Below are positions 1,092-31,312 of a stretch of DNA of 64,000 bases, piece after piece (the stretch's first letter is position 1; each line of letters opens with the position of its first letter). The position numbers and the translations under genes are program-made. A model generated the notes under the pieces. It had not been told where the DNA came from. It ran no database searches and worked only from the letters and a program-made list of their open reading frames with translations. Source of the stretch: Mobula hypostoma (lineage: Eukaryota); NCBI RefSeq assembly GCF_963921235.1, contig NC_086108.1:2790001-2854000 (forward strand). The letters run 5' to 3'.

Positions 1092-1939
1092 CTCATATTT
1101 CACTCTCTTTTCTTCTTCCTCTCCCTCCTCCTCTTCATCCTCACTATCCTCTTCTTTGCTGCTTTCCAAATCACGGTTCCTCTTCCACTCCTGTTCAATC
1201 TCACCCTCGTGTCTCTTCTTCAAGTCCACGCTAAAGTGATGGTGTCTCTTATCCTCGATCTCCTGTTGCTCGAGGGATTGCTTGCTACCCTCTCCCTGCA
1301 GGTGGGTTCCGACCCCCAGCATCTTCATCCCTTTCTGCCCTGCTTCAAACTGATCAGTCTCTTCATCACTGGCATTCTCCTGAACTCGCTTCTCAACACT
1401 CACCGGTCCGTGCTTGTTCCCCGTGCTGCCATCATCTTTCCCTTCACCCCAGTGTTTCTTCCCTCCTTGCTGGTTTCCCAGTTCCTGCTTGGCGATCTTC
1501 TTGAGGAGCTCATCGATCTTGAGGAGGTCACGTTCCTCTTGCCCAACCTCACTGGAACTTTGATCCTCCTCAGATGACTCACCATGCCTCCTCTCAGAAC
1601 TTTCTTTGTCTTTATCAACAACCTCTTCCTTGCTCGCATGGACCACTGCCTTGGTGTCATCTTTACTGTTAACAGCTTCCTTGTCTTCGTGTTGTTCCTC
1701 CATGTTCAGCTCTTCGCTTTTCTTGTTCTGCTCTTTGCTTTTCCTGTATCGCACCATGTCTTCCTCTTCCTTTGAAAGGAGATCCTTCTTCACATGGGAT
1801 CCTCCTTGGCCATTGAGATCTTCCCCCCTTTCATCCCTCTTCTCCAAATTCTCTGCCTCATTCCACTCTGTGACTCCTGCCATCGGGTAGTTCCACTTCT
1901 TGTCACCATTGAGAGACCTTTGCTTGGCTGAACTCTCTC
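1092..1939 (-). CDS. CCER2: Granin precursor large acidic coding exon 5 with many dibasic sites
   Basis: Lies within ORF 876..1958. Acceptor tgtttcttgtccacag, in frame with exon 4 (G|GA GAG AGT). E/K-rich with multiple KR/KK/RR sites and the motif KRVQENASDEETDQFE. The 3' end is inferred at GAG|gttggt (phase 0); alternative donors lie nearby. Confidence 0.85.
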
Positions 1940-3404
1940 CTGTGGACAAGAAACACAAGGGTTAAAACATTCGAGGATGTTGCCATGAGGAAAGATGGGA
2001 TAAATTAGGGCAGTTTGTTGAGAGGAGTCTTAATAGATTGATAGCTTCTTAATTAGTAAGGGCATCAAAGGACAGGGGGAGAAGGTAGGAGAATGGGGTA
2101 GGGTGGGGAAAAAGTTGTGGAGAAGACTCGATGGGCCAGTTAGCATTCTGTTCCTATTACACGGTCTAATCAGGATATAAAATAGTGAGGGGACGAGATA
2201 GAATAAGTAGGAGGGACCCTGGAGGAATTGCGAACTAAGGATTAGATGGAAAGTGATGACAGGTTCCTTGAGGTTTTTATAGCTGGGGGTGGCAAGCTCC
2301 CGCTCCCAATGACATGCACCTCAAATAGTCTCTGACAACCCAAGTCCAGTCCTGTCCTTTATATGCGGCTTAGTTACCAAACCCAGCAGAATCATTTCTA
2401 CTGACAGGAGAAGGAGAAAAGGCGGGTTACTGGTGCCTTAAAACCAGTCACTTCAGGCAGATGGGGCTCGTCAGCCGTAGTTGGCAGCTCATCTTGGAGA
2501 AGGAAAACTCTGATCTCAAACCTCCACTGCCTTCTGGCTGTACCCACTCATGGGGGAGGCTTTGAGAGTAAAGCCAGAGGAAAATTTCAGAGCTGGAGTC
2601 CCTAAGGCAGTCTTACGCTGAGTTCAACACTGACTGGCAACTCCTGCAACACATTCCTTTGGGTTCATCAGCTGGTGGACTACTGCCAGGAAAATTGGCC
2701 TTGATAAAAGCTCCCATCCAGTTCACTGACCAATCCCACAGGCACTGGCCCCCATCATTGGGCTAGTTTGTCTTGAGGTCCTCAACAATGCCTCAACTAG
2801 CTGCTCTCCTGCCGGATGCCATTATCACGTTATTGGTTCTACACCAGATTGACTGAGCCTGACTGAGAAATGTGGCTCGTTGACAGGATTCCTGCCTCTG
2901 AGGCAGGAGGCTGTGGGTTCAAGTCCCACTCCAGCCCAGAATTTGGTGGGATGGGGTGGTAATGTTGCAGTCTGAAAGGGCTCATATCAAGGCATCTTAT
3001 TCCAAGTCTCTGGATATGGAGGATTTCCTGCCTTTTATCTTGAGGAAGAGTGAGCCATTTCTTCCTGATGTCCTGTGGCCAGCAAAGAGCTAAGCTTTAT
3101 TTGTCAGATGTATACCAACAGTGAAATGCATTGTTTGTGTCAACAACCACAGTCCAAGATGCTCAGGAGGGAGCCCACAAGTGTTGCACCTACATAGCAT
3201 GCCCACAGCTTACTAAGCCTAACACGTACATTTTTGGAATGTAGGAGGAAACCAGAGCACCTGGTGGAAACCAACATGAGAATGTACAAACACCTCATGG
3301 GCAGCAGAGAGAAATAAACATCCACCTTACAGCTGGCTCTACAAAGCATTACGCCAATTGTGTACTTAATATTTCAGTAATATTTGAGTAATCTTGTAAA
3401 TCTT

Positions 3405-5650
3405 TTCATTTCAATATAATTATGGAGAAGGATAGGACTGGACCCAAGGTTGAGATTTTTGAATGGAGAAAGTCTAACTTTGAGGAGATGCGAAAGGATT
3501 TAGAAGGAATGGATTGGGGCAATTTGTTTTATGGGAAGGATGTAATAGAGAAATGGGGGTCATTTAAAGGTGAAATTTTGAGGGTACAGGATCTTTATGT
3601 TCCTGTTAGGTTGAAAGGAAAGGTTAAAAGTTTGAGAGAGCCATGGTTTTCAAGGGATATTGGAAACTTGGTTCGGAAAAAGAGAGATATCTACAATAAA
3701 TATAGGCAGCTTGGAGTAAATGAGGTGCTCAAGGAATATAAAGAATGTAAAAAGAATCTTAAGAAAGAAATTAGAAAAACTAAAAGAAGATATGAGGTTG
3801 CTTTGGCAAGTAAGGTGAAAATAAATCCCAAGGGTTTCTACAGTTATATTAATAACAAAAGGATAGTGAGGGATAAAATTGGTCACTTAGAGAATCAGAG
3901 TGGACGGCTATGTGCAGAGCCAAAAAAGATGGGAAGATTTTGAACAATTTCTTTTCTCCGGTATTCACTAAGGAGAAGGATATTGAATTGTGTAAGGTAA
4001 GGGAAACAGGTAGGGAAGTTATGGAAACAATGATGATTAAAGAAGAGGAAGTACTGGAGCTTTTAAGGAATATAAAAGTGGATAAGTCTCTGGGTCCTGA
4101 CAGGATATTCCCTAGGACCTTGAGGGAAGTTAGTGTGAAAATAGCATGGGCTCTGACAGAAATATTTCAAATGTCATTAGAAACGGGAATGGTGCCGGAG
4201 GATTGGCGTATTGCTCATGTTGTTCGATTGTTTAAAAAGGGTTCTAAGAGTAAACCTAGCAATTATCGGCCTGTGAGTTTGACGTCAGTGGTGGGTAAAT
4301 TGATGGAAAGTATTCTTAGAGATGGTATATATAATTATCTGGATAGAGAGGGTCTGGTTAGGAACAGTCAACATGGATTTGTGTGTGGAAAGTCATGTTT
4401 GACAAATCTTATTGAATTTTTTGAAGAGGTTACAAGGAAAGTTGACAACGGTAAAGCGGTGGATGTTGTCTATATGGACTTCAGTAAGGCCTTTGACAAG
4501 GTTCCACACGAAAGGTTAGTTAGGAAGGTTCAATCGTTAGGTATTAATATTGAAGTAGTAAAATGGATTCAGCAGTGGCTGGATGGGAGATGCCAGAGAG
4601 TAGTGGTGGATAACTGTTTGTCAGATTGGAGGCCGGTGACTAGTGGTGTGCCTCAGGGATCTGTACTGGGTCCAATGTTGTTTGTCATATACATTAATGA
4701 TCTGGATGATGGAGTGGTAAATTGGATTAGTAAATATGCAGATGATACTAAGATGGGTGGCATTGTGGATGATGAAGTAGGTTTTCAAAGCTTGCAGAGA
4801 GATTTAGGCCAGTTAGAAGAGTGGGCTGAAAGATGGCAAATGGAGTTTAATCTGATAAATGTGAGGTGCTACATTTTGGTAGGACTAATCAAAATAGGAC
4901 ATACATGGTAAATGGTAGGGCATTGAAGAATGCAGTAGAACAGAGGGATCTAGGAATAATGGTGCATAGTTCCCTGAAGGTGGAATCTCGTGTGGATAGG
5001 GTGGTGAAGAAAGCTTTTGGTATGCTGGCCTCTATAAATCAGAGCATTGAGTATAGGAGTTGGGATGTAATGTTGAAATTGTACAAAGCATTGGTAAGGC
5101 CAAATTTGGAGTATTTTGTACAGTTCTGGTCAACAAGGAAAGATGTCAATAAAATTGAGAGAGTACAGAGGAGATTTACTAGAATGTTCCTTGGGTTTCA
5201 TCTCCTAAGTTACGGAGAAAGGTTGAACAAGTTGGGTCTTTATTCTTTGGAGCGTAGAAGGTTGAAGGGGGACTTGATAGAGGTATTTAAAATTATGAGG
5301 GGGATTGATAGAGTTCACGTGGATAGGCTTTTCCATTGAGAGTGGGAGAGATTCAAACAAGAGGACATGAGTTGAGATTTAAAGGGCAAAAGTTTAGGGG
5401 TAACATGAGGGGGAACTTCTTTACTCAGAGAGTGGTAGCTGTGTGGAACGAGCTTCCAGCAGAAGTGGTTGAGGTAGGTTCAATGTTGTTGTTTAAAGTT
5501 AAATTGGATAGATGTATGGACAGGAAAGGAATGGAGGGTTATGGGCTGAGTGCAGGTCGGTGGGACTAGGTGAGAGTAAGAGTTTGGCACGGACTAGAAG
5601 GGTCGAGATGGCCTGTTTCTGTGCTGTAATTGTTATATGGTTATATGGTT
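3405..5650 (+). mobile_element. 5'-truncated CR1 LINE (RT), frameshifted
   Basis: ORFs 3422-5569 with NYRPVSLTS, DFSKAFDKV, GVPQGSVLGP and YADD; (TTATATGG)n tail. Confidence 0.95.
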
Positions 5651-6904
5651 AAATATATCGTTTGCTTAAGCATTCTTGTTTGTTGAAATAATTACAGGTC
5701 ATATGTACGTGACCTGCATATATCATTACGTTACCACGTGACACATGCACACCTCTCTTAAAGTAAACTTGAAGTTAGACCTGTACTTTGGACTCCAGCG
5801 TCTTCTTTTGAATTAGTTTAATGTTTTTCAGTTACAAAACATAGGAGCAGAATTAGGCCATTCAGCCATTTCATCATGGCTGATCCATTTTCCCTCTCAG
5901 CCCCAATCTCCTGCCGTCTCCCCGTATCCCTTCATGCCCTGACTAATGAAGAATCTATCAACCTCTGCCTCAAATATACCCAATGACTTGGTCTCCATGG
6001 GTGCCTGTGGTAATGAATTCCACAGATTCACCACCCTCTGGCTAAAGAAATTCCTCCTCATCTCCATTCAAAATGAATTCTGAACCCGAGTCCTTTGGTC
6101 TTAAACTCCTCCACCATAGTACAAATCCTCTCTATATCCACTCTATCAAAGCCTTTCAACAGACGATAGATTTGAATTAGGTCACCCCTCATTCTTCTGA
6201 GTCAAGGCCCAGAGCCATTAAACGCTCATGCGATAAGCCTTTCAACCCCGGAATCCTTTTCGTGAATCTCCTTTGAACGCTGCCCAATGTCAGCACATCC
6301 TAAGGGTCCAAATCTGCTCCCAATACTCCAAATGAAGCCTCACCAGTGCTTTATAAAGCCCCAATATTACATCCTTGCTTTTATATTCTAGTCCTCTTGA
6401 AATGAATGCTAACATCGCATTTGTTGTCCTGCAAATTAACTATGCTGATTACCCAACTAATATCATTACTATGGATTATCACGTCGCTGCCGCTGGTGCT
6501 CCTGACCTCACTGGATCTCCTAAATAACAACAAGGACTGTAAGTTCATTGGCTAACGACCATACTGAGATTATGAAAGTCCTTATCAAGATGCAGGTCTG
6601 CCTTTGATCATTCTACCAGTGTCTTGAGGACAGGTCATTTTAAGATAGGGTTTGAAAATCTAAAATAGTGCAGAAGATAGAAATCTGAGGTAACAATAGG
6701 GAATGGTGGAGGTACTCAGAACATCAGGCAGCATCTGTGGTAAGAAAAGACCAGAATCAATGCCTCAGATTGGAGACCCTTCGTCAGATCCGGGCAAGTG
6801 AGAAAGCAACTTTATTTTACAAGGAGGATGGGGTGGGATGGATAGAGTGAAGAGAATATGTGAAGGAAATGTATCCTCAGGTCGACAACTGATAAACAGT
6901 AACT

Positions 6905-7455
6905 ATATTTCACTGGGAGTTTGAGGAGACTTGGTATGTCACTAAAGACTCTCAAATATTGCTACATGTGTACTGTGAAGAGCATTTTAACCAGCAGCAT
7001 CACCATCTGGTACGGAGGTGTTAATGTACGGGATTGGAAAACGCTGCAGAAAGTTGTGAGCTCAGTCAGTTCCATCACGGACACCCACCTCCACAGCATC
7101 CAGGACATCTTCAAAAGGCCATGGCTCAGAAAGGCAGCTTCTGTCATTCAAGACCCCCACCACCCAGGACGTGCCCTCTTCTCATTGCCACCATCAGGGA
7201 GGAGGTACAGAAGCCTGAAGGCATACACTCAGTGATTCAAGAACAGCTTCTTCCCCTCTGCCATCCGATTTCAGAACAGTCCATGAACAGTACCTCATTA
7301 AGTTTCTGTCTTGCTTTTTGCGCTACTAATATAATTTAATTTTTAAATATAAATTTCTTACTATAATTTATAGTTTTGTTATTATTATGCATTGCATTGT
7401 ACTGCTGCCACATAACAAATTTCATGACATATGCCGTGATATTAAATCTGACTCT
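6905..7455 (+). mobile_element. Rex1/Babar-type LINE 3' fragment
   Basis: SILTSSITIWYG...LPPSGRRYRSLK C-terminal motif followed by an AT-rich 3' UTR. Many similar fragments occur across the window. Confidence 0.75.
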
Positions 7456-7554
7456 GGTCCTCAGCTGCTTCTCGGTAGAAATTAAACTTGACTATTCATA
7501 CTGGGGAATTTATTGAGAGGAAAGAGAAGAGACACAGAAATATAAAGATAAGGA

Positions 7555-8170
7555 GAGAAGGGAGGGGGAGAGAGAGGGGGGGGGAGAGAGAGAGGGGGGA
7601 GAGGAGGGAGGGAGAGAGGGAGGGAGAGAGGGAGGGAGAGAGGGAGGGAGAGAGGGAGGGAGAGAGGGAGGGAGAGAGGGAGGGAGAGAGGGAGGGGGGA
7701 GAGGGAGGGGGGAGAGGGAGGGGGGAGAGGGAGGGGGGAGAGGGAGGGGGGAGAGGGAGGGGGGAGAGGGAAGGAGAGAGGGAAGGAGAGAGGGAGGGGG
7801 GAGAGGGAAGGAGAGAGGGAGGGGGTGAGGGAAGGAGAGAGGGAGGGGGTGAGAGAAGGAGAGAGGGAGGGGGTGAGAGAAGGAGAGAGGGAGGGGTTGG
7901 AGAGAAGGAGAGGGGGGAGAGAGAAGGAGAGAGGGAGGGGGAGAGAGGACAGAGAGACAGCAGAGAGATGATCGAGAATTAGAGAGAGGGGATAGAAAGA
8001 AGATAGTGAGAAGGAAAAGAGATTGAGGGGATGGGGAAGGGGAGAGACATAGATAGGTAGATAGATAAAATGAGGGGGGAGAAAACGGATACAAATAAAT
8101 GGTGAGTGAAAAAAGATAGAAAGAGATGGAACGAGAGTGTGAGATAGACTCGAGAGAGAGAGAATGAGAG
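7555..8170. repeat. GA-rich microsatellite / low-complexity tract in intron 4
   Basis: (GAGAGGGA)-type units; strongly purine-biased plus strand. Confidence 0.95.
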
Positions 8171-8252
8171 ATGGTGAGAATCCTACAATTGTTTGCAGGT
8201 GGATGTTTACACCACAAACGACAGCCACAGCAGTTTGACGTGGTCACTGTAC

Positions 8253-8321
8253 CGTGATGTGTGAGTTCCTCCAGCTCCCTCAGAAGATTCTGATGATGCA
8301 CCATAGCCAGAACTGTCTCAT
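8253..8321 (-). CDS. CCER2: Granin precursor coding exon 4 (DETVLAMVHHQNLLRELEELTHH)
   Basis: Acceptor ccctctcctgctag and donor CACG|gtacag. 69 nt, phase 1 to 1. Matches CHGA DERILSILRHQNLLKELQDLA. Confidence 0.9.
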
Positions 8322-8560
8322 CTAGCAGGAGGGATAAATACTGCAGTTAGCACTGTGACCATCTTAAATGCAAAGGATTGAAAAAGATCCAGGCAGATTA
8401 TGAAAATATAGTCGAAAGGATGCACAGCAACAGAGACAGAGAGACACAGTGAGTGACAGAGAGAGAGAGACAGAGAGCATGTAGCAGACATGCAGTTGCA
8501 CAACTGGGAGAGAGGCAGAGAATGGGCAGAGGAAAGTATCGGAGGAACGGGCTGACTAAC

Positions 8561-8651
8561 CTTCTTTGAGAATGTTGCTGCATTCATCACTGAGAGGCAG
8601 TGAGGGTTTGGAGAGAGTATCTGAAATCACCTCGGCAATACATCTGGTAAC
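8561..8651 (-). CDS. CCER2: Granin precursor coding exon 3: disulfide loop VTRCIAEVISDTLSKPSLPLSDECSNILKE
   Basis: Acceptor tctccccctgcag and donor GAAG|gttagt. 91 nt. Close match to the chromogranin A/B N-terminal Cys-loop (CHGA CIVEVISDTLSKPS...EC). Confidence 0.93.
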
Positions 8652-9789
8652 CTGCAGGGGGAGACAAAGGTACAGATGGACACTGAATTGCAGGTCGTTC
8701 AACCTCCCGAAGACTAACTGCCCCTTATTCCGTTCATGTTTAATAGATATCACAAACAAAATCAGCATGATAATTCCCATCCCTCACTCTCCCTGAACTG
8801 CCACCTAATGATGGAAAGTAACAACCTTATCAGGCAAACTTGCTGGAGGATCTCAAGGGGTCAAGCAGCATCTGTGGAGGGAAATGGACAGTCAGCCTAA
8901 TGGCATGAATTTCAATTCCGCCTTCCAGTTTAAAAACCCTTTCCCTCCCCCTCTTCTTCTATTCCTCACTCTGGCCTCTTACTCTTTCTCGCCTGCCTAC
9001 CACCTCCCTTGGTGCCCCTCCTCCTTCCCTTTCTCCTGGACGGTTTGACTTGTGGTTTAAAGTTTTATTTTTGGTGTTTTTCGCTTGTCTATTTGTGCCA
9101 TATGCACATGGCGGGGGCGGGGGGGCGGGGTTGATGTTTTTCTTTGAACAGGTTCCATGGTTTTCCTGGTTTTGTAACTGTCTGTGAAAAGATGAATCTC
9201 AGGGTTGTATACTGCATACATACTTCAATAACAAATGTACTTTGAATCTTCAGTCCACTCTATTCTCCTATCAGATTCCTTCCTCTCCAGCCCTTGACCT
9301 TTCCTACCCATTTGGCTTCAGCTATCACCTTCCAGCTGTCCTCCTTCCCCTCCCTCCACCTTTTCATTCTGGTGTCTTACCCTTTCTCCCTTCCTCCTCA
9401 GTCCTGATGAAGGGTCTCAGCCCAAAATGTCCACTGCTTATTCACTTCCATGGATGTTGTCTGACCTGCTGAGTTCCTCCAGAATTTTGTGTGTGTTGCT
9501 CTGGATTTCCAGCACTTGCAGAAGTTCTTGTGTTTATGAATCAACTTCTCTGGTTATTTCAGCAGTGTCTTGTGTCTCCAAATCACACTGTGTCTGGAGT
9601 TACATATAGTGTATAACAAGTTAGGGTAAATGATTTGGCCCATGTGAATGTACAAGATGGACACTATTACTAACAGCTTAAACTCAAATATTTAACAATG
9701 TCAAGGAGGAATTTGTTCTCATTTGCACAAGCCCATAAGGCATCAGCGCAGAATTAGGTCATTTGGCCTTTCATCTGCTCTGCCAAACA

Positions 9790-10740
9790 AACTTGGACAA
9801 CTAATATTTTAGAACATGTTGCTTCCTCAGAAATTTGGTTTGTTGATGAGAGACTGCTTGAAGCTGAACAGAAATACAACTTCAATTTGGAGAAACAAGA
9901 AATTAACTTTTATTGAGTATAATGCATTTAATTGCATAGCTTTGCAGTAGTTCAACTAAGCTAACAATGTTTTGTTGATGATTTTCATTTGTGCTCAGTG
10001 TCTGAGGCTTCTCACTTAAGTGTCCAACAATAATCAGCCAGTATTGATGGATTCCAGTTGCCCTGAAACAGTTTCTCTATGATCGCAATGTCCTGGTGAA
10101 ACCTTTCACTGCGTTCGTCACTGACAGCGCTAAGGTTTTCTGGGAAGAAGTCTAAATGGGAAGGCAGAAAATGAATCTTTAGTGACATGTTGCACTTCAT
10201 GGTTTCTTCTCCGTGGATTGTCACCTTGTTGCGGTGGAGAGGCTTGTGTGGTCCTGTGATCCCGAGAGCAATGCTGTCTGGAGCTATGCTCCTGGTAGGG
10301 TCACCCATGGCGGTAAGGTCAAGGGTGAGGTCCCTGACAAAGAACAATCCAACCAAGACCTCAACGGTGGAACAGGCAGAAGAAGTTACTTTAAACTCAA
10401 TGGCTGTGAAGGCGGATGAAGGCTGCAACAAATCCACCAGCTCCAATCGTCGTGGTTTCCGTGCCATTGGAACCAGTTGGTTGATTTGTGAAGTATCGTG
10501 TGCTTCTTGGAGTGCAACATCAAGTACACGTTAAACAAATACACGCACAGGCGTCTTCACTCTGTGGGTCACTTCTTCAGAACGAAGACCATCATCCTCG
10601 ACCTTGAGGGATAGCCACGACGACGACGACTTCATGGTTTCAGCTCACATTGTGGGCAGCATTTCAACTGACTTGAAATGTGAATCGAGATAACAAATAA
10701 AGACGATTTTTAGAAAATGATACATAATAGGGGATTTCAC
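9790..10740 (-). mobile_element. DNA transposon remnant (Chapaev3-like transposase C-terminus), interrupted by an RTE-related insert
   Basis: MKCNMSLKIHFL.SHLDFFPENL.AVSDE..ERFHQDI...LADYCW; same family as 38993-39764. Superfamily name is from memory. Confidence 0.7.
10207..10628 (+). mobile_element. RTE-related non-autonomous element/SINE with (ACG)n tail
   Basis: 13-bp TSD ACTTCATGGTTTC at 10194-10206 and 10629-10641. RTE/BovB-like 5' UTR head (CACCTTGTTGCGGTGGAGAGGCTTG...GGGTCACCCA). Confidence 0.8.
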
Positions 10741-18015: not shown

Positions 18016-18177
18016 GAAGAAGCTGAAGGAAATAACATCTATTGGTCTATTGAAATGCAGAACAGGGACATGGATGGGAAAGTGTTGGAAAATGGAACTA
18101 GCTGAGATGGCTATCTTGGATGGCATAGCCAAGGTGGGCTGGGTGTTCTATTTCCATGCTGTATTCTTTGCAATGTT

Positions 18178-19960
18178 TAGAATATAGAACAGTACAGCAC
18201 AGTACAGGCCCTTCAGCCCACAAACCCTGCCTCCCATATAAGCCCCCACCTTAAATTCCTTCATATACCTTTCTAGTAGTCTCTTAAACTTCACTAGTGT
18301 ATCTGCCTCCACCACTGACTCAGACAGTGCATTCCACGCACCAACCACTCTCTGAGTAAAAAACCTTCCTCTAATATCCCCCTTGAACTTCCCACTCCTT
18401 ACCTTAAACCCATGTCCTCTTGTATTGAGCAGCGGTGCCCTGGAGAAGAGGCACTGGCTATCCACTCTATCTATTCCTCTTATTATCTTGTACACCTCTA
18501 TCATGTCTCCTCTCATCCTCCTTCTCTCCAAAGAGTAAAGCCCTAGCTCCCTTAATCTCTGATCATAATGCATACTCTTTAAACCAGGCAGCATCCTGGT
18601 AAATCTCCTCGGTACCCTTTCCAATGCTTCCACATCCTTCCTATAAGTGAGACGACCAGAACTGGACACAGTACTCCAAGTGTGGTCTAACCAGAGTTTT
18701 ATAGAGCTGCATCATTACATCGCGACTCTTAAACTCTATCCCTCGACTTATGAAAGCTAACACCCCATAAGCTTTCTTAACTACCCTATCTACCTGTGAG
18801 GCAACTTTCAGAGATCTGTGGACATGTACCCCCAGATCCCTCTGCTCCTCCACACTACCAAGTATCCTGCCATTTACTTTGTACTCTGCCTTGGAGTTTG
18901 TCCTTCCAAAGTGTACCACCTCACACTTCTCCGGGTTGAACTCCATCTGTCACTTCTCAGCCCACTTCTGCATCCTACCAATGTCTCTCTGCAATCTTCG
19001 ACAATCCTCTACACTATCCACAACACCACCAACCTTTGTGTCGTCTGCAAACTTGCCAACCCACCCTTCTACCCCCACATTCAGGTCATTAATAAAAATC
19101 ACGAAAAGTAGAGGTCCCAGAACAGATCTTTGTGGGGCACCACTAGTCACAACCCTCCAATCTGAATGTACTCCCTCCACTACCACCCTCTGCCTTCTGC
19201 AGGCAAGCCAATTCTGAATCCACCTGGCTAAACTTCCCTGGATCCTATGCCTTCTGACTTTCTGAATAAGCCTACCGTGTGGAACCTTGTCAAATGCCTT
19301 ACTAAAATCCATATAGATCACATCCACTGCACTACCCTCATCTATATGCCTGGTCACCTCCTCAAAGAACTCTATCAGGCTTGTTAGACATGATCTGCCC
19401 TTCACAAAGCCATGTTGACTGTCCCTGATCAGACCATGATTCTCTAAATGCCCATAGATCCTATCTCTAAGAATCTTTTCCAACAGCTTTCCCACCACAG
19501 AGGTAAGGCTCACTGGTCTATAGTTACCTGGACTATCCCTACTACCTTTTTTGACAAGGGGACAACATTCACCTCCCTCCAATCCTCCGGTCCCATTCCC
19601 GTGGACAATGAGGACATAAAGATCCCAGCCAGAGGCTCAGCAATCTCTTCCCTCGCCTCGTGAAGCAGCCTGAGGAATATTCCGTCAGGCCCCAGGGACT
19701 TATCCGTCCTAATGTATTTTAACAACTCCAACACCTCCTCTCCCTTAATATCAACATGCTCCAGAACATCAACCTCACTCATATTGTCCTCACCTTCATC
19801 AAGTTCCCTCTCATTGGTGAATACTGAAGAGAAGTATTCATTGAGGACCTCGCTCACTTCCACAGCCTCCAGGCACATCTTCCCACCTTTATCTCTAATC
19901 GGTCCTACCTTCACTCTTGTCATCCTTTTGTTCTTCACGTAATTGAAGAATGTCTTGGGG
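18178..19960 (-). mobile_element. CR1 LINE, 5'-truncated (same family as 58736-61018)
   Basis: Overlapping minus-strand ORFs with full RT motifs; near-identical peptides to the 58.7-61.0 kb copy. Confidence 0.95.
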
Positions 19961-21944
19961 AAACCTAAGGTGGATCTTGTCACTCAGAGCGTGGTGAGGA
20001 TGTATGTGTGGAACGAGCTGCCGCTGGAAGCGGTGAATACGGCTTTGAGTTCAACACTGAAGAGGAAATGGGATAGGTACATGGATGGCAGAGGTATGGA
20101 GGGCTATGGTTTGAGTGCAGGTCAATGGGAGTAGGTAGATCAGCAGTGCGGTACAGACTAGATGGGCCAAAGGGCCTGTTTCTGTGCTGTAGTTCTAGGA
20201 ATCTATGACACTGGCCCAGAACAGGCAGCTGCTGGGAAATGGAAAGTCGAGCCTTGGGGTGAACTGACATGCATAACTCTGTCAATCAGTGTGGCACACC
20301 TTCTAGTGTCTCTCTGTTAGAGAGTGACTGCCATCTCCAGTCTAAACATCAAAGAGCCTGATCCAGAGTCTCTTGTGTCTGGGTCTGCTTTAAGTGCAAG
20401 ATGTGAATGGAACCGAGGCCCATCACGTGTACCCGAGCCCCAGCAGGCATGTTTGCTGCTTGTACACAGGGTGCACAATTGAATCCTGCACATCCTCAAA
20501 AACCATAAAATGCAAGTGAGACATTGTTTCCCCAAGAGGTTTAAGGACTTCACATCAATCCATTCTGTTGATCAAAGTTGCTTGATAGATATCCAGAAAT
20601 CTAAATACTGGTGTGACTGTCACCTCCTTCATAAACATCTATCAATCTATGGTGGTAGGGTAATAACTATTTTTGAACTTGGTAGTGTGTGGGACCGAAG
20701 GTTGATGGCAGCAGCGAGAAGAGAGCATGGTTGGAGTCCTTGATGATGGATGCTGCTTTCTTGGCACTGGCAATGTTGGAACCTAAGTGAGGAGGAAGAC
20801 CGACTCTAGTGTAGAGAGGGCGACCAGAGTTTATTCATAAGAATTCCAACAGAACGGTTGGCTGAGCGACACCACAAGTCGTAACATTCTCAAAACTAGG
20901 ACCCCACAATTAGCGCAAATCAGGAGTCCCCTGAAGTAATCCAAGTGACACGGTATCCCCTGCCCTTTGGAGGCTTTCCCCATTCAAGGGCTTTGTTATT
21001 TCCAGATCGGGCTGTGATGACTCTATAATATGCACAAAGGCCCGAATCATATCTTATACTTCTATATATAGATCCTGGGTTTTGGTTTCCTTGTGTGCAA
21101 ACATCCTCCCTACCTTATTAAAAGTTAAATTACATAAATGATTCTTGCATATATTTGCTGTATACGTTTACATGTATTCGGAATTTGCTGTGGTGTGCTG
21201 GCCACGACATGGCATACAACATACAACTATAAAGCATAAAGAATTATATAAAAAATAAAGTTAGAGGTTAAGAGCCAGATATGGAATAAAATGTGCATGA
21301 ATACCAGCACAAAACAGCTTTACAAAGTGGTTTAAAGTGTTTACAGTGCTGTGACGGAGGTAATACATAGAGGGGTTGGGGAGGTCACCAGATGACCAGA
21401 TTAACTAGCTGATGAAAGAAGCTTTTAACTTGGTGTGAAGTTTGTGTTGTAATAGCCCTATAGTGCTTCACACTGGGAGGTTTTGTAAAAGGCAGGTTGC
21501 AGGGTGGGTGGTCTCTGAATGATTTGTCTTGCCTGCTCCCTTGTCCTGGACACGTACCAGTCTTTCAGTGATGATAGACTGCACCAATGACCTTCTCTGC
21601 CCGTCTTTTTGATTCCTCACATGTATGTGCCTGGTTACGGTCTAAAAAAAAGCACTCTTGCCCGCTTTGACATTGTCTACACTGTACTGACAATCACAAC
21701 TGAATATCCATGAATAAGACCACAAAATGTTTGCAACACTCAGCTGGTCAGACAGAAACAAAGTCAAAGTCATAAGAGTGGAAACATTTAGAGAAGTCTG
21801 TTTCTCACTTACTGGATGCTGCTTGCCTGGCTAAATATTTCTGGTGCTCTTGGCTCGATTTCAGATTTAGAGTTTGCAGCAGGACCTTCAGCACTTAACG
21901 GAAAGGAAGTTGACGTTAACGGGGTCAGGGGGCTCTGCACTCTG

Positions 21945-22155: not shown

Positions 22156-23570
22156 GCAGGTCCATTTGGAGACTCTGAAGAAATAGGGCATGGCTGGAGA
22201 TCTTTCTTGGCCAGAAAATATGGAGGATCTTTAGAGGCAAGGTAGTCATTCTCACAGTTAAAACTGACCATGACTTCCACTCTATCTTGCCTTAATGTCT
22301 TTGGACATCGAGAGCTAACAATGGCTCAGAGGGCAACTTTCTCCAGTTCATCTGCGAAACAGTTTAAATTCTTCACTTTACTGTCTCTTCTCTCCTTTTC
22401 AAGGTGGTTGTAGTGCTGTGGGTGTCAGTGACCTACAGCTGCACTCAAACTGTATTTCTTCACAAGCAGTGGAGCCAGCCCAGCGGCCTAGCATTTTCAA
22501 TCTCTGCAGAAGGTGCCCGCCTTCGGGGATGGGCTTTTGTGGCCCTGTGGATGACCCAATTCTCGCTGAAGCATTGCGGGAGATCAGAACATCGAGGGAG
22601 TGGGTGTGGCTGTCAGAGGCCTCCGCACTCAAGTGATCAGTCTCTCTCCCTCTCGATGGTGAGAAGCAATTTGCTGCTGTTTCTGCAGGCTGTGACATCG
22701 AAACAGAGACCTGTGGGCCTCTCCTCTCACTGTGGCATGAATGAAACCTCACTCCCTTGTTAGTAAGAGAGAGCCTGTGGGATGTCAAAGTGTTGGGATA
22801 AACAACATCTTTTTTTTGATGAACCCCAGATCATAGTCTCTATGGGAGCTTTGCAATTGCTTGCCTGGCAGGTGGGGAGGGGGGGGTGCTGTTGCTTTGT
22901 GCTGGAATAAGTGGGGGGGGGTGAGGAGAGGGTTGATGCTTTACTGCTGCTTGTGGGAGGAAGGGCGATGGTGTTCTAACGTTTTTCTGTCATTCATTCA
23001 TTGGGGTTTTTCTTCTGTTTGGTGGAGGTCTGTGAAAAGTAAGAATTTCAGGCTGTATACATTCTCTGATATTAATTGGAAACACTAAACCTTTTAATTA
23101 ATGTAGAAGAACAACAGGGGTTTCAGATTGACCTTTAAACAGACAGAAGTGAAGGAAGGACCCCTTCATGAACAGACTCGGTATTAATCCAAATAAGTAA
23201 ACAGAGTAATCAAGTATTTGTTGGTAATTAAGTGTCTGCTTTTTCAGCGAACATCTGTGACGTGGCTTTCAACAACACCGACAAGTTAACAGGCAAGTAA
23301 CATCTACAGCACCACCAAGTCTGGGTTCCACCCAACATCTTCTGGAAGCATTAACATCAGAGGCATGGCCAAATTTCTACAGATGTGTGGTGGAGAGCAT
23401 ACTGACTGGTTGCCACACCATCTGGCACGTAGGCACCAATGCACAGGATGGCAAGAGGTTGTAGCCTCAGGCAGCTCCATCACTGGCACAAACCTCCCCA
23501 CCAGTGAGGACATCTTCAAGAGGCGGTGATCCAAGAAGGCAGTGTTCATCCTCAAGGACCTTCACCATCC

Positions 23571-25482
23571 AGAAGACGTCCTCTACTCATTCATCCGGAA
23601 GTGCATCGACGATGTTGTCCCCCAGAGGTCAGTCAGGTTCGGGAAGACCCTGAGACCCTGGATCAATAGTTCCACGCGAGCAGCACTTACCACTCAACAC
23701 AGAGCTTACGCTGCTGGCAGTCAGCAGGAGCTCAGGAAAAGCAGCTACGATCTGCGCAGAGCCATCAAGACTGCGAAACAGCAATACAAGGACAAGATTG
23801 AGTCAAGATTCACAACGAATAGCACATGTGACCTGTGGCGAGGGTCGCAAACTGCAAAGCCACCAACATCGTGGCCTCAAATGAGCTCAATCGCTTTTAC
23901 GTTCGGTCCGATGTCACTAACACTGAGCCTCCGAGGAAAGCCACCGCTACTACCTGCAACCTGGTCATCCCTGAGGCTGAGGCACGCAGATGTTTCCAAC
24001 AAGTGGACAGTCGCAAGGCTGTGGGACCGGATGGCATCCCAGTGCGGGTACTCAGGATGTGCCCAGCACAACTGGCAGGTGTGCTTGCAAACATTTTTAA
24101 TCTCTCCTTCTCCCAGTGTAGAGTTCCCTCCTGCTTCAAAACATCCACCATTGTTCCTGTACCTAAAAAGACCAAGGTAACATGTCTGAATGACTGGCGT
24201 CCTGTCGCACTCACCTCAATAATCAGCAAATACTTTGAGAGGCTGGTCAAGGATTACATCTGCAGCTGGCTACCACCTACACTGGACCCCTACAATTCAC
24301 CTACTGACACAACCGATCAACAGATGGAACAATAGCCACACCTCTACACACTGTCCTTACACATCTGGAGAAGGCTGCTTCTGTGAGAATGCTGTTCTTG
24401 CACTACAGTTCAGCATTCAACACCGTAATTCCATCCAGGCTCGACAGGAAGCTCAGAGACCTCGGCCTTCACCCTGCCTTGTGCAACTAGATCCTGGACT
24501 TCCTTTCAGAGAGCCGGCAGGTGGTAGGAGTGGGCTCCCTCACCTCCACCCCTCTGACTCTCAACACAGGAACCCCTCATGTCTGTGTACTAAGTCCCCT
24601 CCTTTACTCCCTGTATACCCATGACTGTGTCGCCACCCACAGCTCTAATCTGCTAATTAAATTTGCCGACGACAGTACATTGATTGGCCTAATCTCAAAC
24701 AGTAATGAGGTGGCCTACAGGGAAGAAGTCATCACCCTGATACAGTGGTGTCACGAAAACAACCTCTCCCTCGATGCCGCAAAAACAAAGGAGCTGGTTA
24801 TGGATTACAAGAAGAATGGAGACAGGCTAACCCCTGTTGAAAATCAATGGACCTGGGGTTGAGAGGGTAAACAGCTTTGAATTCTGCAGCATCCACATCA
24901 CCAAGGATCTCACGTGGTCTGTACACACCAGCTGTGTGGTGAAAAAGGCACAACAGTGTCTCTTTCACCTCAGACGGTTGAGGAAGTTTGGTCTGGCCTC
25001 CCAAATCCTAAGAACTTTCTACAGGGGCACAATTGAGAGCATCCTGACTGGCTGCATTACTGCCTGGTATGGGAACTGTACTTCCCTCAATCACAGGACT
25101 CTGCAGAGAGTGGTGCAGACAGCCCAGCGCATCTGTAGTTGTGAACTTCCCATGATTCAGGACGTTCACAGAGACAGGTGTGTAAAAAGGGCCCGAAGGA
25201 TCATTGGGGACTCGAGTCACCCCAATCACAAACTGTTCCAGCTGCTACCATCAGGGAAACGGTACCGCAGCATTAAAGCCAGGACCAACAGGCTCCAGGA
25301 CAGCTTCTTCCAGCAGGCCATCAGACTGATGAACTCACGCTGATTTGAGTCTATTTCTGTGATAGATTGACTGTTCTATTTATTATAAATTACTATGATT
25401 GCACATATAGATGGAGACGTAACGTAAAGATTTTTACTCTTCATGTTATGTGAAAAATGTAAGAAATAAAGTCAATTCAAAT
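23571..25482 (+). mobile_element. Rex1/Babar-clade LINE, 5'-truncated
   Basis: KAVGPDGIP, LNDWRPVALTS, VLSPLLYSLYTHDC, KFADD, KKAQQCLFHLRRLRKFG; AATAAA plus CAATT tail. Confidence 0.9.
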
Positions 25483-26843
25483 CCGCTAGGAACCAAAATT
25501 GGATTCTCATTCCATCGTTTGGTTCACGAAGTCTTTCTGCAATGAGAATATCCAACAGGAGAGAGGTTTACACCCTACCTTCATATTCAATGCTCTGTGA
25601 CTTTACCTTCATTGAGACCCAAAACGTCCATGTTCAATGGCTCATCATTAACCAAAAACTCAAGTGGACCAGCCTCTTGTCTATGTGGTGGTTTCATCAG
25701 GCAGGAGGTATAGGAGTCTGAAGACCCACACTCAACATTTTAGGAACAACTTCTTCCCCTCCATTGTCAGATTTCTGATCAGTCCATGAACCTTGAACTC
25801 TACCTCACCATGCTTTTGTACTATACTTATTTTTCTAATTTACGCTAGATTTAAGTCTTTGCACTGTACTGCTGCCACAAAACAACGAAGGTCATGTCAT
25901 CTAAATCAGAACCTACGTACTAATCTTTCCAGTGCTGAAAACCTTAAAATCTTTCTCCATCAAATCTGGTTTTTGGGCATATCATCTACAAGTTTCATAA
26001 ACTTCTGCAGATGTGCAGTGGAGAGTATTCTGACTGGATGCATCACAGTCTGGTATAGAAGCGCTAATTCCCTGGAATGGAAAGTCCTACAAAAAGTAAT
26101 GGGTACAGCTAAGCCCATCTCGGCTAATTCCCTTCGTTAATGAGTACATCTACTATCACGGGTGAGTGTAAATGAGCTCTTTGGGCCTGTGTGGGGAACG
26201 GGTGAACAGTGGGATCTGAGGTTTTTAACAGCACCTGAATTTTAAGAGCAATCTTGTCGTGAGAGGCCCCTTGGGTAACAGTGACCATAATATGGTGGAA
26301 TTCTTTATTAAGATGGAGAGTGACATAGTTAATTCAGAAACAAAGGTTCTGAACTTAAAGAAGGGTAACTTTGAAGGTATGAAACGTGAATTAGCTAAGA
26401 TAGACTGGCAAATGACACTTAAAGGATTGATGGTGGATATGCAATGGCAAGCATTTAAAGGTTGCATGGATGAACTACAACAATTGTTCATCCCAGTTTG
26501 GCAAAAGAATAAATCAAGGAAGGTAGTGCACCCGTGGCTGACAAGGGAAATTAGGGATAGTATCAATTCCAAAGAAGAAGCATACAAATTAGCCAGAGAA
26601 AGTGGCTCACCTGAGGACTGGGAGAAATTCAGATTTCAGCAGAGGAGGACAAAGGGCTTAATTAGGAAGGGGAAAAAAGATTATGAGAGAAAATTGGCAG
26701 GGAACATTAAAAACTGACTGTAAAAGCTTTTATAGATATGTAAAAAGGAAAAGACTGGTAAAGACAAATGTAGGTCCCCTGCAGACAGAAACAGGTGAAT
26801 TGATCATGGGGAACAAGGACATGGCAGACCAATTGAATAACTA

Positions 26844-27615
26844 AAACAACAGGAATTCTGCAGATGCTGGAAATTCAAGCAACATACATCAAAGTTGCTG
26901 GTGAACGCAGCAGGCCAAGCAGCATCTATAGGAAGAGGCGCAGTCGACATTTCAGGCCGAGACCCTTCGTCAGGACTAACTGAAGGAAGAGTGAGTAAGG
27001 GATTTGAAAGCTAGAGGGGGAGGGGGAGATGCAAAATGATAGGAGAAGACAGGAGGGGGAGGGATAGAGCCGAGAGCTGGACAGGTGATAGGCAAAAGGG
27101 GATACGAGAGGATCATGGGACAGGAGGTCCGGGAAGAAAGACGGGGGGGGGTGACCCAGAGGATGGGCAAGAGGTATATTCAGAGGGACAGAGGGAGAAA
27201 AAGGAGAGTGAGAGAAAGAATGTGTGCATAAAAATGAGTAACAGCTGGGGTACGAGGGGGAGGTGGGGCCTAGCGGAAGTTAGAGAAGTCAATGTTCATG
27301 CCATCAGGTTGGAGGCTACCCAGACGGAATATAAGGTGTTGTTCCTCCAACCTGAGTGTGGCTTCATCTTTACAGTAGAGGAGGCCGTGGATAGACATGT
27401 CAGAATGGGAATGGGATGTGGAATTAAAATGTGTGGCCACTGGGAGATCCTGCTTTCTCTGGCGGACAGAGCGTAGATGTTCAGCAAAGCGGTCTCCCAG
27501 TCTGCGTCGGGTCTCACCAATATATAAAAGGCCACATCGGGAGCACCGGACGCAGTATATCACCCCAGTCGACTCACAGGTGAAGTGTTGCCTCACCTGG
27601 AAGGACTGTTTGGGG
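26844..27615 (-). mobile_element. Penelope-like element 3' fragment (GIY-YIG endonuclease plus terminal region)
   Basis: GVIYCVRCSRCGLLYIGETRRRLGDRFAEH; 14-bp TSD CAATTGAATAACTA at 26830-26843 and 27616-27629. Confidence 0.92.
26942..26977 (-). ncRNA. Minimal hammerhead ribozyme motif of the Penelope-like element
   Basis: AGTC-CTGACGA-AGG(GTCTCGG)CCT-GAAA-TGTC-GACT: core boxes present, stem I AGTC/GACT, stem II AGG/CCT. Confidence 0.7.
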
Positions 27616-29674
27616 CAATTGAATAACTACTTTGGTTCTGTCTTCACTAAGGAGGACATAAAAAATCTTCCAGAATTAAGGGAGAGAGGGTCCAGTGAGA
27701 TGGAGGAAAGTGGTGTTAGGTAAATTGAAGGGATTAAAGGTAGATAAATTCTCAGGGCCAGATGGTCTGCATCCCAGAGTGCTTAAGGAAGTAGCCCATG
27801 AAATAGTGGATGCATTAGTGATAATTTTTCAAAACTCTTTAGATTCTGGACTAGTTCCTGAAGATTGGAGGGTGGCTAATGTAACCCCACTTTTTAAAAA
27901 AGGAGAGAGAGAGAAACCGGGGAATTATAGACCGGTTAGCCTAACGTCGGTGGTGGGGAAACTGCTGGAGTCAGTTATCAAAGATGTGATAACAGCACAT
28001 TTGGAAAGCAGTGAAATCATCGGACAAAGTCAGCATGGATTTGTGAAAGGAAAATCATGTCTGACGAATCTCATAGAATTTTTTTGAGGATGTAACTAGT
28101 AAAGTGGATGGGGAGAACCAGTGGATGGGGTATATTTGGATTTTCAAAAGGCTTTTGACAAGGTCCCACACAGGAGATTAGTGTGCAAACTTAAAGCACA
28201 TGGTATTGGGGGTAAGGTATTGATGTGGATAGAGAACTGGTTGGCAGACAGGAAGCAAAGAGTGGGAATAAACAGGACCTTTTCAGAATGGCAGGCAGTG
28301 ACTAGTGGGGTACCGCAAGGCTTAGTGCTGGGACCCCAGTTGTTTACAATATATATTAATGACTTAGATGAGGGAATTAAATGCAGCATCTCCAAGTTTG
28401 CAGATGACACGAAGCTGGGCGGAAGTGTTTGCTGTGAGGAGGATGCTAAGAGGATGCAGGGTGACTTGGATAGGTTTGGTGAGTGGGCAAATTCATGGCA
28501 GATGCAATTTAATGTGGATAAATGTGAGATTATCCACTTTGGTGACAAAAAGAGGAAAACAGATTATTATCTGAATGGTGACCAATTAGGAAAAGGGGAG
28601 GTGCAACGAGACCTGGGTGTCATTATACACCAGTCATTGAAAGTGGGCATGCAGGTACAGCAGGCGGTGAAAAAGGCGAATGGTATGCTGGCATTCATAG
28701 CAAGAGGATTCAAGTACAGGAGCAGAGAGGTACTACTGCAGTTGTACAAGGCCTTGGTGAGACCACACCTGGAGTATTGTGTGCAGTTTTGGTCCCCTAA
28801 TCTGAGGAAAGACATTCTTGCCATAGAGGGAGTACAAAGAAGGTTCACCAGATTGATTCCTGGGATGGAAGAACTTTCATATGATGAAAGACTGGATTGA
28901 CTAGGTTTATACTTGTTGGAATTTAGAAGATTGAGGGGGAATCTTATTGAAACATAAAATCCTAAAGGGATTGGACGGGCTAGATGCAGGAAGATTGTTC
29001 CCGATGTTGGGGAAGTCCAGAACGAGGGGTCACAGTTTGACGATAAAGGGGAAGCCTTTTAGGACCAAGATTAGGAAAACCTTCTTCACACAGAGAGTGG
29101 TGAATCTGTGGAATTCTCTGCCACAGGAAACAGTTGAGGCCAGTTCATTGGCTATATTTAAGAGGGAGTTAGATATGGCCCTGTGGCTACAGGGGTCAGG
29201 GGGTATGGAGGGAAGGCTGGTGCAGGGTTCTGAGTTGGATGATCAGCCATGATCATAATAAATGGCAGTGCAGGCTCGAAGGGCCGAATGGCCTATTCCT
29301 GCACCTATTTTCTATGTTTCTATGTTTCTATGATATGTATCTGTTACCATCCACTGCCTTTAGATTCATGTTCTTGCAGACTTCTACAGGGAAAAAAGAA
29401 ATGGAATAGAATTTATGAAGAACTATACATAAAGACTGACAAAGAACTAGTGTTCAAAAGAAGACAGACTGTAAATAAAAACAATACCGGGAGCATCAGT
29501 TGTCAGAGTCCTGGAAAGCGAGTTTACAGATCAGGGAATCAGTTCATTTGGTACATTGGCCTTTATTAATTGTAGTATTGAGTGTAAGAGCTGGAATGTT
29601 ATGATGAGGTTGTATAAGGCATTGGTGAGGCCGAATCTGGAGTATTGTGTTCAGTTTTGGTCACCAAATTACAG

Positions 29675-30905
29675 GTGAGAAAGAGGGAGACAGTTAGTGA
29701 AGGAGAACGAGAGACGGCAGATAGATAGTGACGAAGAGAGGGGGGAGCAGGGAGACAAAGACAGTGAAGGAGAGGGAGCCTGAGACAGTGAGGGTGGAGT
29801 GGGAGATGGAGACAGAAATAGTGAGGAAGAAAATGATGTCGAGGGAGTCGGTGGTATTAATGGGGAGGGAGAGCGAGAGGGACACAGATACTGAGGGTGA
29901 GAGTGAGGGAGAGGGAGTCTAGAAAGAGATAGTGAGGAGGAAGGAGCGGGGGAGAGACACACAGAGGTAGTGATTTGAGGGAATGGGAGAGGGATCCGAG
30001 ATAGTGAGGAGGGACGGGGATAGGGAGGCAGAGATGAGGGAGAAGAAGTTGACAGATAGTGAGGGAAGCGAGAGAATAGACAGAGGTCATGAGGGAGAGG
30101 GAGACAGATAGTGAGGGGGAGGGAGAGGGAGATAGTAAGGGAGTGGGAGAAAGAAACAGATAGTGAGGGAGAATAAGGGGAGAGGAAGAGGGAGACAGGG
30201 ATAGTGAGGGAGAGGAAAAGGGAGATAAATATATTGAGGGAGAAGGAGACGGAGAAAGTGAGGGAGACAGATTGTGAGGGAGGGAGATAGAGATAGTGAG
30301 GAAAGGAAGAGAGAGACGGAGAGAGTGAGGGAGAGGTAGACAGTAAAGGGGAAGGAGTGAGAGACGAAATACTGAGAGAGAGGGAGATTGTGAGAGAGAT
30401 TTGAGAGGGTGTGATAGAGGGAGACAGATAGAGAGGGTGAGGGGGAGGAAGAGAGAGAGTGAAGAAGAGGGTGTGGGAGACTGAGGGAGGGAGAGGGAAG
30501 GAATGGGGAGGAGGAGAAATGGGGTTTGAAGTGGGGAGTGAGAGGGACACAAAGAGGCAGGGGGGCAGATGGGGGAGAAAAAGAAGATGGAGAGACGGGG
30601 TGGTAAAGGAGAAGAAAGGGAGGAAAGGGGGAGTGGCTTGCTGGAGTGGGTCTGGGGGGAGGGAGATGGGGGGAGGGACATTAGGAAGACGGAGATTAGG
30701 ACGGGGAGAATGGAAAATAGGGGAGGGTGTGGGGGAGAGATAGGGCGAGAGAGTGTGGGTTTAAATTGAGGGTCGGGACAGAGGGAGAGATAACAAGGCG
30801 GAGAGAGGGAGGATGTTCATGCATTCATACTCGCGGAGAGAGAAGGATGAGACAAGACGACTGGAAGGAGCGAGGGAGGGAGAGCCGGGAGGCTGGAGGG
30901 AGAGG
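29675..30905. repeat. Purine-rich low-complexity tract in intron 1
   Basis: Degenerate GAGACAGATAGTGAGGGA-like units over about 1.2 kb. Confidence 0.9.
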
Positions 30906-30971
30906 GTGGCCTGGCCGGGGAGAGCGGAGAACAACAGCGAATCCGCAGCGCCACCGGAGCTCCCGGCTCTG

Positions 30972-30992
30972 CTCTCTGTCCATGGAGCTGAA
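30972..30992 (-). promoter_or_regulatory. RE1/NRSE-like REST binding site in intron 1
   Basis: TTCAGCTCCATGGACAGAGAG versus consensus TTCAGCACCACGGACAGCGCC. Correct half-site spacing, about 275 bp downstream of exon 1. Confidence 0.7.
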
Positions 30993-31266
30993 AACATCTC
31001 GAACCCTCGAGAACAGGAGCTTTGGGGATAATATCGCACCTCCCGATAACCATCTGGCATTTAATCTTATATTTTCCATTAACTATTAACCAACCAATCT
31101 CGCCACCTCACACAAAGCACAACTTTTCTATTTTAAATAACACATAACCAGCAAGTCCGTTTAAATAATAGAGCCGACACCAGACAAACAGTATTAACAC
31201 AGTGCAAATAGTATTTAAATACATTTTAACACAATGAAACGCACTTGGATGTTGGAACAACCTTAC

Positions 31267-31312
31267 CCTGGTAACAGAGGAGCATCAAGACCGCGAAACC
31301 CCTGTAAATCAT
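31267..31312 (-). CDS. CCER2: Granin-family precursor (CHGA-like N-terminus, CCER2-like core), coding exon 1: signal peptide MIYRGFAVLMLLCYQ
   Basis: ATG at 31312 (context CACAATG), hydrophobic signal peptide, CAGG|gtaagg donor. 46 nt, ends phase 1 and joins exon 2 in frame. Resembles CHGA MRSAAVLALLLCAGQ-V as recalled. Gene symbol is tentative (alternative: CHGA-like). Confidence 0.8.

Follow-up and report, generated by a model that had tools for sequence, protein, structure and literature searches.

Is the granin-type gene on the minus strand of a 64,000-nucleotide (nt) window from the ray Mobula hypostoma (the whole stretch of DNA analysed, C50:2790001-2854000 of the same-genome assembly, whose contigs are designated C1, C22, C50 etc.) the chromogranin A gene (CHGA) of this animal, or is it the orthologue of CCER2, as the original prediction had it, so that CCER2 would be a chromogranin paralogue? 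The latter reading is supported by separate CHGA and CHGB loci in the same genome, by the protein tree and by a C-terminal alignment given by CCER2 proteins only. Very probably, the ray gene is a genuine chromogranin A/B-type granin and the six-exon, single-copy orthologue of CCER2; it retains every hallmark of a chromogranin, and CCER2 thus appears to be a sister of CHGA that has been overlooked, and not an anonymous "coiled-coil" protein.

The five phase-compatible exons of the original prediction (46, 47, 91, 69 and 848 nt; 367 codons) were reproduced with AG/GT junctions, and the peptides quoted in it (the Cys-loop, HQNLLRELEEL, ASDEET and KRHHH) were all present on the minus strand at the places given; as a complete gene, five exons fell one short. 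Coding exon 1 (31312-31267, minus strand, 46 nt) carries the ATG and a hydrophobic signal peptide and ends at the donor GTAAGG; its product was aligned with the N-termini of the orthologues P0005 and P0006. Coding exon 2 (11111-11065, minus, 47 nt) runs from the last part of the signal peptide into the mature protein (VTCRPLSSKILKDDDK). Among the 46 open 47-nt AG..GT intervals in the 22 kb that separate exon 1 from the loop exon, it is the only one with a polypyrimidine tract and a GTAAAT donor, and its peptide also occurs in the Hemitrygon and Pristis orthologues. Coding exon 3 (8651-8561, minus, 91 nt) is the disulfide-loop exon with Cys35 and Cys55, the Cys-loop stretch lying at 8601-8651 (minus); coding exon 4 (8321-8253, minus, 69 nt) codes for the helix ...VLAMVHHQNLLRELEELTHH, with HQNLLRELEEL at 8263-8295 (minus). 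Coding exon 5 (1939-1092, minus, 848 nt, i.e. 2 nt and 282 codons) is the acidic Glu/Lys-rich core. At position 1092 there is a splice donor (GAG|GTTGGT), past which the gene continues; the orthologous Mobula protein runs on into the granin C-terminal helix and was used to locate coding exon 6 (C50:2777913-2777996, 13.1 kb past the window start), which encodes 27 residues of this helix, ending in RRG, and the stop codon. All junctions are AG/GT and the phases are compatible across the six coding exons; the coding sequence of 1185 nt (394 amino acids, aa) spans approximately 43 kb. The protein contains E 17.5%, D 7.1%, K 11.4% and 14 dibasic K/R pairs, 13 of them in exon 5 and the 14th (RR) in exon 6. 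Exon 5 by itself matched a Mobula protein (96% identity, E 2.6e-157) together with seven further elasmobranch proteins; judged by these matches, the exon model is far beyond chance.

Three segments of exon 5 are of use below. The internal amphipathic segment DLLKIDELLKKIAKQEL (1479-1529, minus) is conserved in the elasmobranch orthologues. The CCER2 signature peptide KR-VQENASDEETDQFEAGQKG... (1314-1391, minus) follows a dibasic site and contains an N-x-S sequon and an S-x-E site. KRHHH (1236-1250, minus) begins a His-rich segment, continued by ...DLKKRH, that is common to CCER2 proteins. In isoform X4 of the catshark Scyliorhinus canicula (P0010) the internal segment (LD/KIDE…KKIA) is present in three tandem copies; it occurs once elsewhere.

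That the frame is a decaying or unexpressed copy in M. hypostoma is hardly credible. Such a copy would agree with the sequencing record of the species (11 runs, none recorded as RNA); however, the 394-codon frame is intact across six exons with canonical splice junctions, and it shares 87-96% identity with orthologues from two further genera of rays, the motifs being invariant. The gene is present in a single copy, exon 5 as a protein query of its own genome having matched itself alone. Full-length skate and squamate orthologues are encoded by Logan contigs of 1.6 kb and 2.4 kb, respectively; these short contigs therefore represent spliced transcripts.

Membership in the granin family was examined exon by exon. 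Exon 3 alone matched Pfam Granin (PF01271) over positions 8-37 (E 4e-5, 23.2 bits; gathering cut-off 25 bits), and no Pfam match was obtained for exon 5 alone; the full-length orthologues Hemitrygon P0005 (87% identical to the ray protein, 37.5 bits) and catshark P0010 (38.3 bits) are above the cut-off. The hydrophobic leader from exons 1-2, a putative signal peptide, was aligned with the leaders of the orthologues and, at profile level, with that of CHGA. The disulfide-loop motif (Cys35/Cys55, Cys-x20-Cys) occupies an exon of its own (91 nt), and the exon 6 product, a C-terminal amphipathic helix with an RRG end, aligns with the C-termini of CHGA and CHGB. The CHGA exons of the same genome (47/94/69 nt) match the 47/91/69 pattern of the ray gene in the same phases, and the CHGB loop exon (91 nt) has the phase of the ray loop exon. 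For human CHGA, the original prediction gives first coding exons of 46/47/94/69 nt.

A Granin search of the ray's own genome gave loop-granin exons at three loci, viz. C1:2.157 Mb, C22:82.18 Mb and the C50 gene; the search was run in a stricter mode and the count is therefore a lower bound. The C22 locus has a CHGB-type loop at 82.18 Mb and a CHGB-type C-terminal exon at 82.16 Mb. On C1, the granin exons resemble Narcine chromogranin-A, GOLGA5 lies at 1.93-1.97 Mb (its only position in the genome, counting scores above the family cut-off) and ITPK1 exons lie at 2.197-2.204 Mb; by these matches C1 is the carrier of the classical GOLGA5-CHGA-ITPK1 arrangement. One further Granin match (C9:64758703-64763265, open reading frame 1240-3198, minus; 63.6 bits) is a single 652-aa frame, which we take to be secretogranin II (SCG2) with a secretoneurin-like segment. 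As a loop granin it was rejected: it reads as secretogranin II and is devoid of the Cys loop and the RRG helix.

The simplest alternative, that the ray gene is just the orthologue of CHGA, draws on the NCBI label "chromogranin-A-like" given to the shark and skate orthologues, on the N-terminal 85 residues and on an ITPK1-type gene nearby. Over these 85 residues the identity to CHGA proteins is 47-55%, and the ray protein has the complete vasostatin-like domain. The second ITPK1-type gene (C50:2672077-2695864, plus strand) lies 82-105 kb from the last exon of the ray gene, and the two ITPK1 copies (C1 vs C50) share 62-73% protein identity in conserved exons; at such identity, they point to an old block duplication of granin and ITPK1. 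The neighbour being an old paralogue, ITPK1 synteny alone cannot discriminate. Of the two CHGA neighbours proposed as markers, only ITPK1 has a copy on C50; the genome search with GOLGA5 gave no match there and, outside C1, two weak sub-threshold matches on C18 and C9. Against the CHGA assignment stand the better candidate at C1:2.156 Mb, between GOLGA5 and ITPK1, and the separate proteins named chromogranin-A in the catshark Scyliorhinus and the electric ray Narcine. Moreover, the translated coding sequence of the ray gene is without KRWxKMDELA, the conserved mid-region block of the CHGA consensus, and the ray gene is placed outside the CHGA clade (support of that clade 97/82*). The assignment to CHGA is accordingly regarded as very improbable.

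The relation to CCER2 emerged from the C-terminal part. In the first search with exon 5, all matches (8/8) were elasmobranch proteins, labelled chromogranin-A-like, uncharacterized or Secretogranin-1, so that a profile was needed to reach CCER2. The profile of the C-terminal two-thirds (seven elasmobranch proteins) matched a Narcine "CCER2-like" protein (1.5e-100) and Anolis carolinensis CCER2 (4e-10), and also an Anolis sagrei protein labelled "chromogranin-A". With Anolis CCER2 as the query 43 proteins were obtained, 27 of them named CCER2 in the source (squamates, turtles, salamanders, caecilians, Latimeria and marsupials). Scores of 1.7e-24 to 1.5e-19 put the elasmobranch proteins ahead of marsupial CCER2 (8e-9) and of the only genuine CHGA retrieved (2e-8, 16% coverage). 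Residues 264-394 of the ray protein aligned with CCER2 proteins only: Ambystoma (46%, E 2e-16), Latimeria (45%, 4e-11), rat (7e-7) and orangutan (3e-5). The ray and CCER2 proteins have in common, in collinear order, the His-rich segment, KKRH and the tail ELxxLxxIExELKxxAEKLRxxRRG. This collinear 130-residue C-terminal half is regarded as the decisive evidence for the CCER2 identity.

In 17/17 aligned sequences, from rays to opossum, the residues K, R, E, A, S, D, E, E, T, Q, F and E were invariant; both cysteines of the loop can be seen in the alignment as well, as can the leucines in the C-terminal helix. The signature has the form KR-V-x-E-[NK]-A-S-D-E-E-T-x-Q-F-E, with an N-x-S sequon in cartilaginous fish and the coelacanth. 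An exhaustive profile search gave 104 representatives, named by cluster look-ups: true CHGA was identified in Scyliorhinus, Narcine, Callorhinchus, Latimeria, Acipenser, Ambystoma, Xenopus and turtles, in addition to rat CCER2, a partial orangutan CCER2, CHGB and two lamprey proteins. CHGA and CCER2-type genes are thus both present in four taxa (Scyliorhinus, Narcine, Latimeria and Ambystoma). The ASDEETxQFE motif was found in 46 of the 50 elasmobranch/CCER2-type proteins, two more having TSDEET and two being truncated; it was found in none of the 44 CHGA-type representatives, nor in one fish CHGA retrieved by name. Neither a CCER2 family devoid of the motif nor its sharing by fish CHGA, which the original prediction had named as fatal to its reading, was therefore observed.

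The proteins named CCER2 of Latimeria, caecilians, salamanders, turtles and squamates keep the full vasostatin-like N-terminus, and those of coelacanth, caecilian, turtle and lizard pass the Pfam Granin cut-off. In marsupial, rat and orangutan CCER2 the motif and the His run persist, and the marsupial and rat proteins also have a degenerate Cys loop and the C-terminal helix; for the mammalian proteins (5/5) no Pfam Granin match was obtained at E of 1 or better. The mammalian CCER2 profile was nevertheless aligned with the CHGA profile over the signal peptide and the loop (hhalign probability 90%, E 1.6e-6). A protein of the bonefish Albula goreensis (P0115, 203 aa; UniRef label Chromogranin A) shows the variant …HASDEATHQF… and a CCER2-type tail, from which the family would also occur, in a short form, in ray-finned fishes.

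The tree was calculated from 42 proteins and 110 N- and C-terminal columns, with CHGB as the outgroup. The CCER2-type clade including the ray gene (support 93/86) was separated from the remaining sequences by one branch in 93% of the bootstrap trees; it is the sister of the CHGA clade, each of the two containing cartilaginous and bony vertebrates. Marsupial CCER2 is on a very long branch (1.4). Two lamprey proteins (P0120, Lampetra; P0111, Petromyzon) have the granin loop and the C-terminal helix and are without the ASDEET motif; they fall outside the CHGA and CCER2 pair on long branches.

One might suppose that the gene is a CHGA duplicate peculiar to cartilaginous fish and that its likeness to CCER2 is convergent, and the first exon 5 search, with its purely elasmobranch matches, would agree with this. 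Forcing the elasmobranch genes together with chondrichthyan CHGA was, however, rejected in the approximately unbiased (AU) test (p 0.005) at a cost of 33.6 log-likelihood units (lnL). Convergence is implausible over a 130-residue collinear alignment of ~45% identity with the coelacanth and salamander proteins; the neighbouring ITPK1 copy is old, and orthologues exist in bony vertebrates. A lineage-specific duplicate is consequently highly unlikely.

Several observations weigh against orthology with CCER2. The CCER2-type clade is short of full support, and the grouping of the elasmobranch genes with all CHGA obtained AU p 0.107 (delta lnL 3.9) on the 110 columns; N-terminal BLAST scores to CHGA and CCER2 are about equal (~90 bits), the "CCER2" names of non-mammalian proteins come from automatic annotation, and granule sorting, processing and peptide activity are transferred from CHGA and CHGB. 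The synteny is loose. Human CCER2 has SIRT2, NFKBIB, SARS2 and MRPS12 as neighbours, of which SIRT2, SARS2 and MRPS12 were sought in the ray genome. C50 carries a sirtuin exon at 3.359 Mb, 0.54 Mb from the ray gene, and MRPS12 at 9.455 Mb, 6.6 Mb away (196 bits to mammalian uS12m). The sirtuin exon is closest to SIRT2 (60.2 bits vs 57.7 for SIRT3), SIRT3 being the C45 gene (131 vs 112 bits). Genome searches with Seryl_tRNA_N and tRNA-synt_2b did not detect SARS2 on C50 and gave a C52 gene, presumably cytosolic SARS1; no FBXO17/27-type gene was found on C50 in the genome search, the FBA domain occurring in a C75 cluster only. PAF1 and SUPT5H, presumably in human 19q13.2, are on C40, and the nearest identified neighbour of the ray gene, the ITPK1 paralogue, is not known to have a counterpart beside human CCER2. 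The linkage to the human CCER2 region is only partly conserved: of the neighbours put forward in the original prediction, SIRT2 and MRPS12 were recovered on the contig and SARS2 was not.

Two further sequences of C50 were recorded. A 492-aa uninterrupted frame (C50:82233455-82234090, plus) contains a complete class-II aminoacyl-tRNA-synthetase core (102.5 bits) and may be an intronless mitochondrial synthetase other than SARS2. A VPS9-domain exon at C50:3.177 Mb belongs to RINL or another VPS9 gene; no relative was found for it in PDB.

The equivocal AU result on the N- and C-terminal alignment and the lack of tight synteny with the human CCER2 neighbours are also what speaks for a third alternative: an ancient granin paralogue nearer to CHGA, with the true CCER2 lost in cartilaginous fish, the ray-type gene lost in bony vertebrates and the motif ancestral. 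This would require two reciprocal losses, and all CHGA would have to have lost the motif. The grouping with CCER2 is preferred in the unconstrained tree, full-length scores are higher to CCER2 than to CHGA, SIRT2 and MRPS12 are on the contig of the ray gene, and only three loop-granin loci, as a minimum count, were found in the genome. The ancient paralogue is judged improbable, if somewhat less so than the readings dealt with above. Since the 110-column tree leaves room for a paralogue on the CHGA side, decisive weight is placed on the 130-residue C-terminal alignment, and orthology with CCER2 is preferred.

For the CCER2 orthologue of the ray, the following course is proposed by analogy with CHGA and CHGB. 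The signal peptide would take the acidic 394-aa protein into the secretory pathway via the endoplasmic reticulum. The N-terminal disulfide loop and the acidic core, aggregating with Ca2+ and at low pH, would sort it into dense-core granules, presumably those of neuroendocrine and sensory cells; in CHGB the disulfide loop is reported to be essential for sorting (PMC2132667). Prohormone convertases would cut at some of the 14 dibasic sites and free, among others, a peptide starting at the invariant V-x-E-[NK]-A-S-D-E-E-T-x-Q-F-E and the C-terminal amphipathic peptide. The invariant segment follows KR and has an S-x-E site and, in cartilaginous fish and the coelacanth, N-x-S; it is therefore the best candidate for a functional peptide or a modification site. 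As regards origin, the ray gene and CHGA would go back to a duplication that preceded the divergence of cartilaginous from bony vertebrates and copied a granin and ITPK1 block. Elasmobranchs, coelacanth, amphibians and reptiles would have retained the full granin architecture, and mammals would have shortened and degraded the N-terminal part of CCER2, so that it went unrecognised as a granin there. An even chance is given to the complete proposal, in which CCER2 is the third surviving CHGA/CHGB ohnologue from the early vertebrate genome duplications, together with ITPK1, and a genuine dense-core-granule granin/prohormone, the ASDEETxQFE segment, which is the same from rays to primates, marking a conserved bioactive peptide or a phospho-dependent sorting signal.

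A putative core promoter was located at 31505-31538 (minus), ~195-225 nt upstream of the ATG: an octamer TGACATCA (31538-31531), similar to the cAMP-response element (CRE), lies 16 nt upstream of a TATA-like TATTTAAAAA (31514-31505). cAMP-responsive core promoters have been described for chromogranin genes. The sole perfect TGACGTCA of the window, at 4280, is at chance level and one-mismatch CRE sequences are common by chance; that 31505-31538 may be a cAMP-responsive core promoter is only suggestive.

Neighbouring genes were not seen in the window when 150 of the 177 stop-to-stop frames of >=60 aa in 31.5-64 kb, those as far as ~58.8 kb, were compared with Pfam, a scan that would miss short exons; it gave two reverse-transcriptase matches and two sub-threshold matches to domains of unknown function (DUF) only. 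Reverse-transcriptase/endonuclease frames of the long interspersed nuclear element (LINE) type are located within intron 1 (18151-19983, minus), upstream of the gene (42289-43596, plus; 59570-60894, plus) and where the window begins (3-410, minus), one of them with 115 bits to RVT_1. Long CT-rich low-complexity tracts on the minus strand at 7485-8243 (intron 4) and 29600-30820 (intron 1) give Ser/Leu/Pro frames and show a strong GC skew. An array of roughly 70-bp tandem units lies at ~55 kb (55000-55740). Frames of 172-272 aa at 57854-58669, 39124-39735 and 10015-10530 (all minus) give the impression of DNA-transposon transposase-like remnants; for the former two no Pfam match was obtained at E 1e-3 or better.

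CHGA and CHGB are central to dense-core granule biogenesis and serve as widely used tumour markers and regulatory-peptide precursors; to our knowledge, no more than these two are regarded as true chromogranin homologues. Human CCER2 is described as a marker of Merkel cell carcinoma, in one such study as previously unassociated with neuroendocrine programmes, and it also appears in studies on hair cells, the cochlea and small-cell lung cancer. Merkel cell carcinoma being neuroendocrine, its use as a marker there lends indirect support to the proposed storage in dense-core granules. In the accessible portions of the open-access literature (subscription journals and database family pages being outside the scope) no statement of CCER2-granin homology was found, nor a paper pairing CCER2 with a word starting with "granin"; some of the papers also mention chromogranin or secretogranin. 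In public annotation the non-mammalian orthologues already bear the name CCER2 together with a Pfam Granin flag; the link is thus latent in the databases. A third paralogue reaching from sharks to humans would give the uncharacterised human CCER2 an immediate, testable function: it is predicted to be a granule matrix protein and peptide precursor, with the invariant segment as the candidate peptide, and it may buffer granin loss-of-function phenotypes. If this is true, the human neuroendocrine, Merkel-cell and hair-cell marker CCER2 is a truncated chromogranin. The ray gene itself is an ordinary conserved gene.

Of the known systems, SCG2 shares with the ray protein the character of an acidic granule protein picked up by Pfam Granin, but as a single 652-aa frame without Cys loop or RRG helix it is not a homologue in the narrow sense. 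CHGB has the 91-nt loop exon (VTRC...), an acidic protein and a C-terminal helix on its own exon; unlike the ray gene, it is on C22 and lacks the exon-4 helix and the ASDEET motif. CHGA agrees with the ray gene in the signal peptide, the 47/9x/69-nt exons with identical phases, the Cys-x20-Cys loop, the HQNLL-type helix, the acidic dibasic-rich core, the separate last exon with an RRG-ending helix and the ITPK1-type neighbour; it differs in its separate locus and clade, an unalignable mid-region, the KRWxKMDELA block and the absence of the ASDEET motif and His run. Mammalian CCER2 is shorter (~270-290 aa vs 394) and its HQNLL helix is missing or degraded, whereas the KRVAEKAS[DN][EK]ET.QF motif and the G-rich and His-rich segments after it are those of the ray protein, as are, in marsupials and rat, the Glu-rich tail, the C-terminal helix and the N-terminal ..VTRC/LTRC.. 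Cys loop. What makes the ray form of the gene informative is that it combines the CHGA-like N-terminus with the CCER2-specific C-terminal half.

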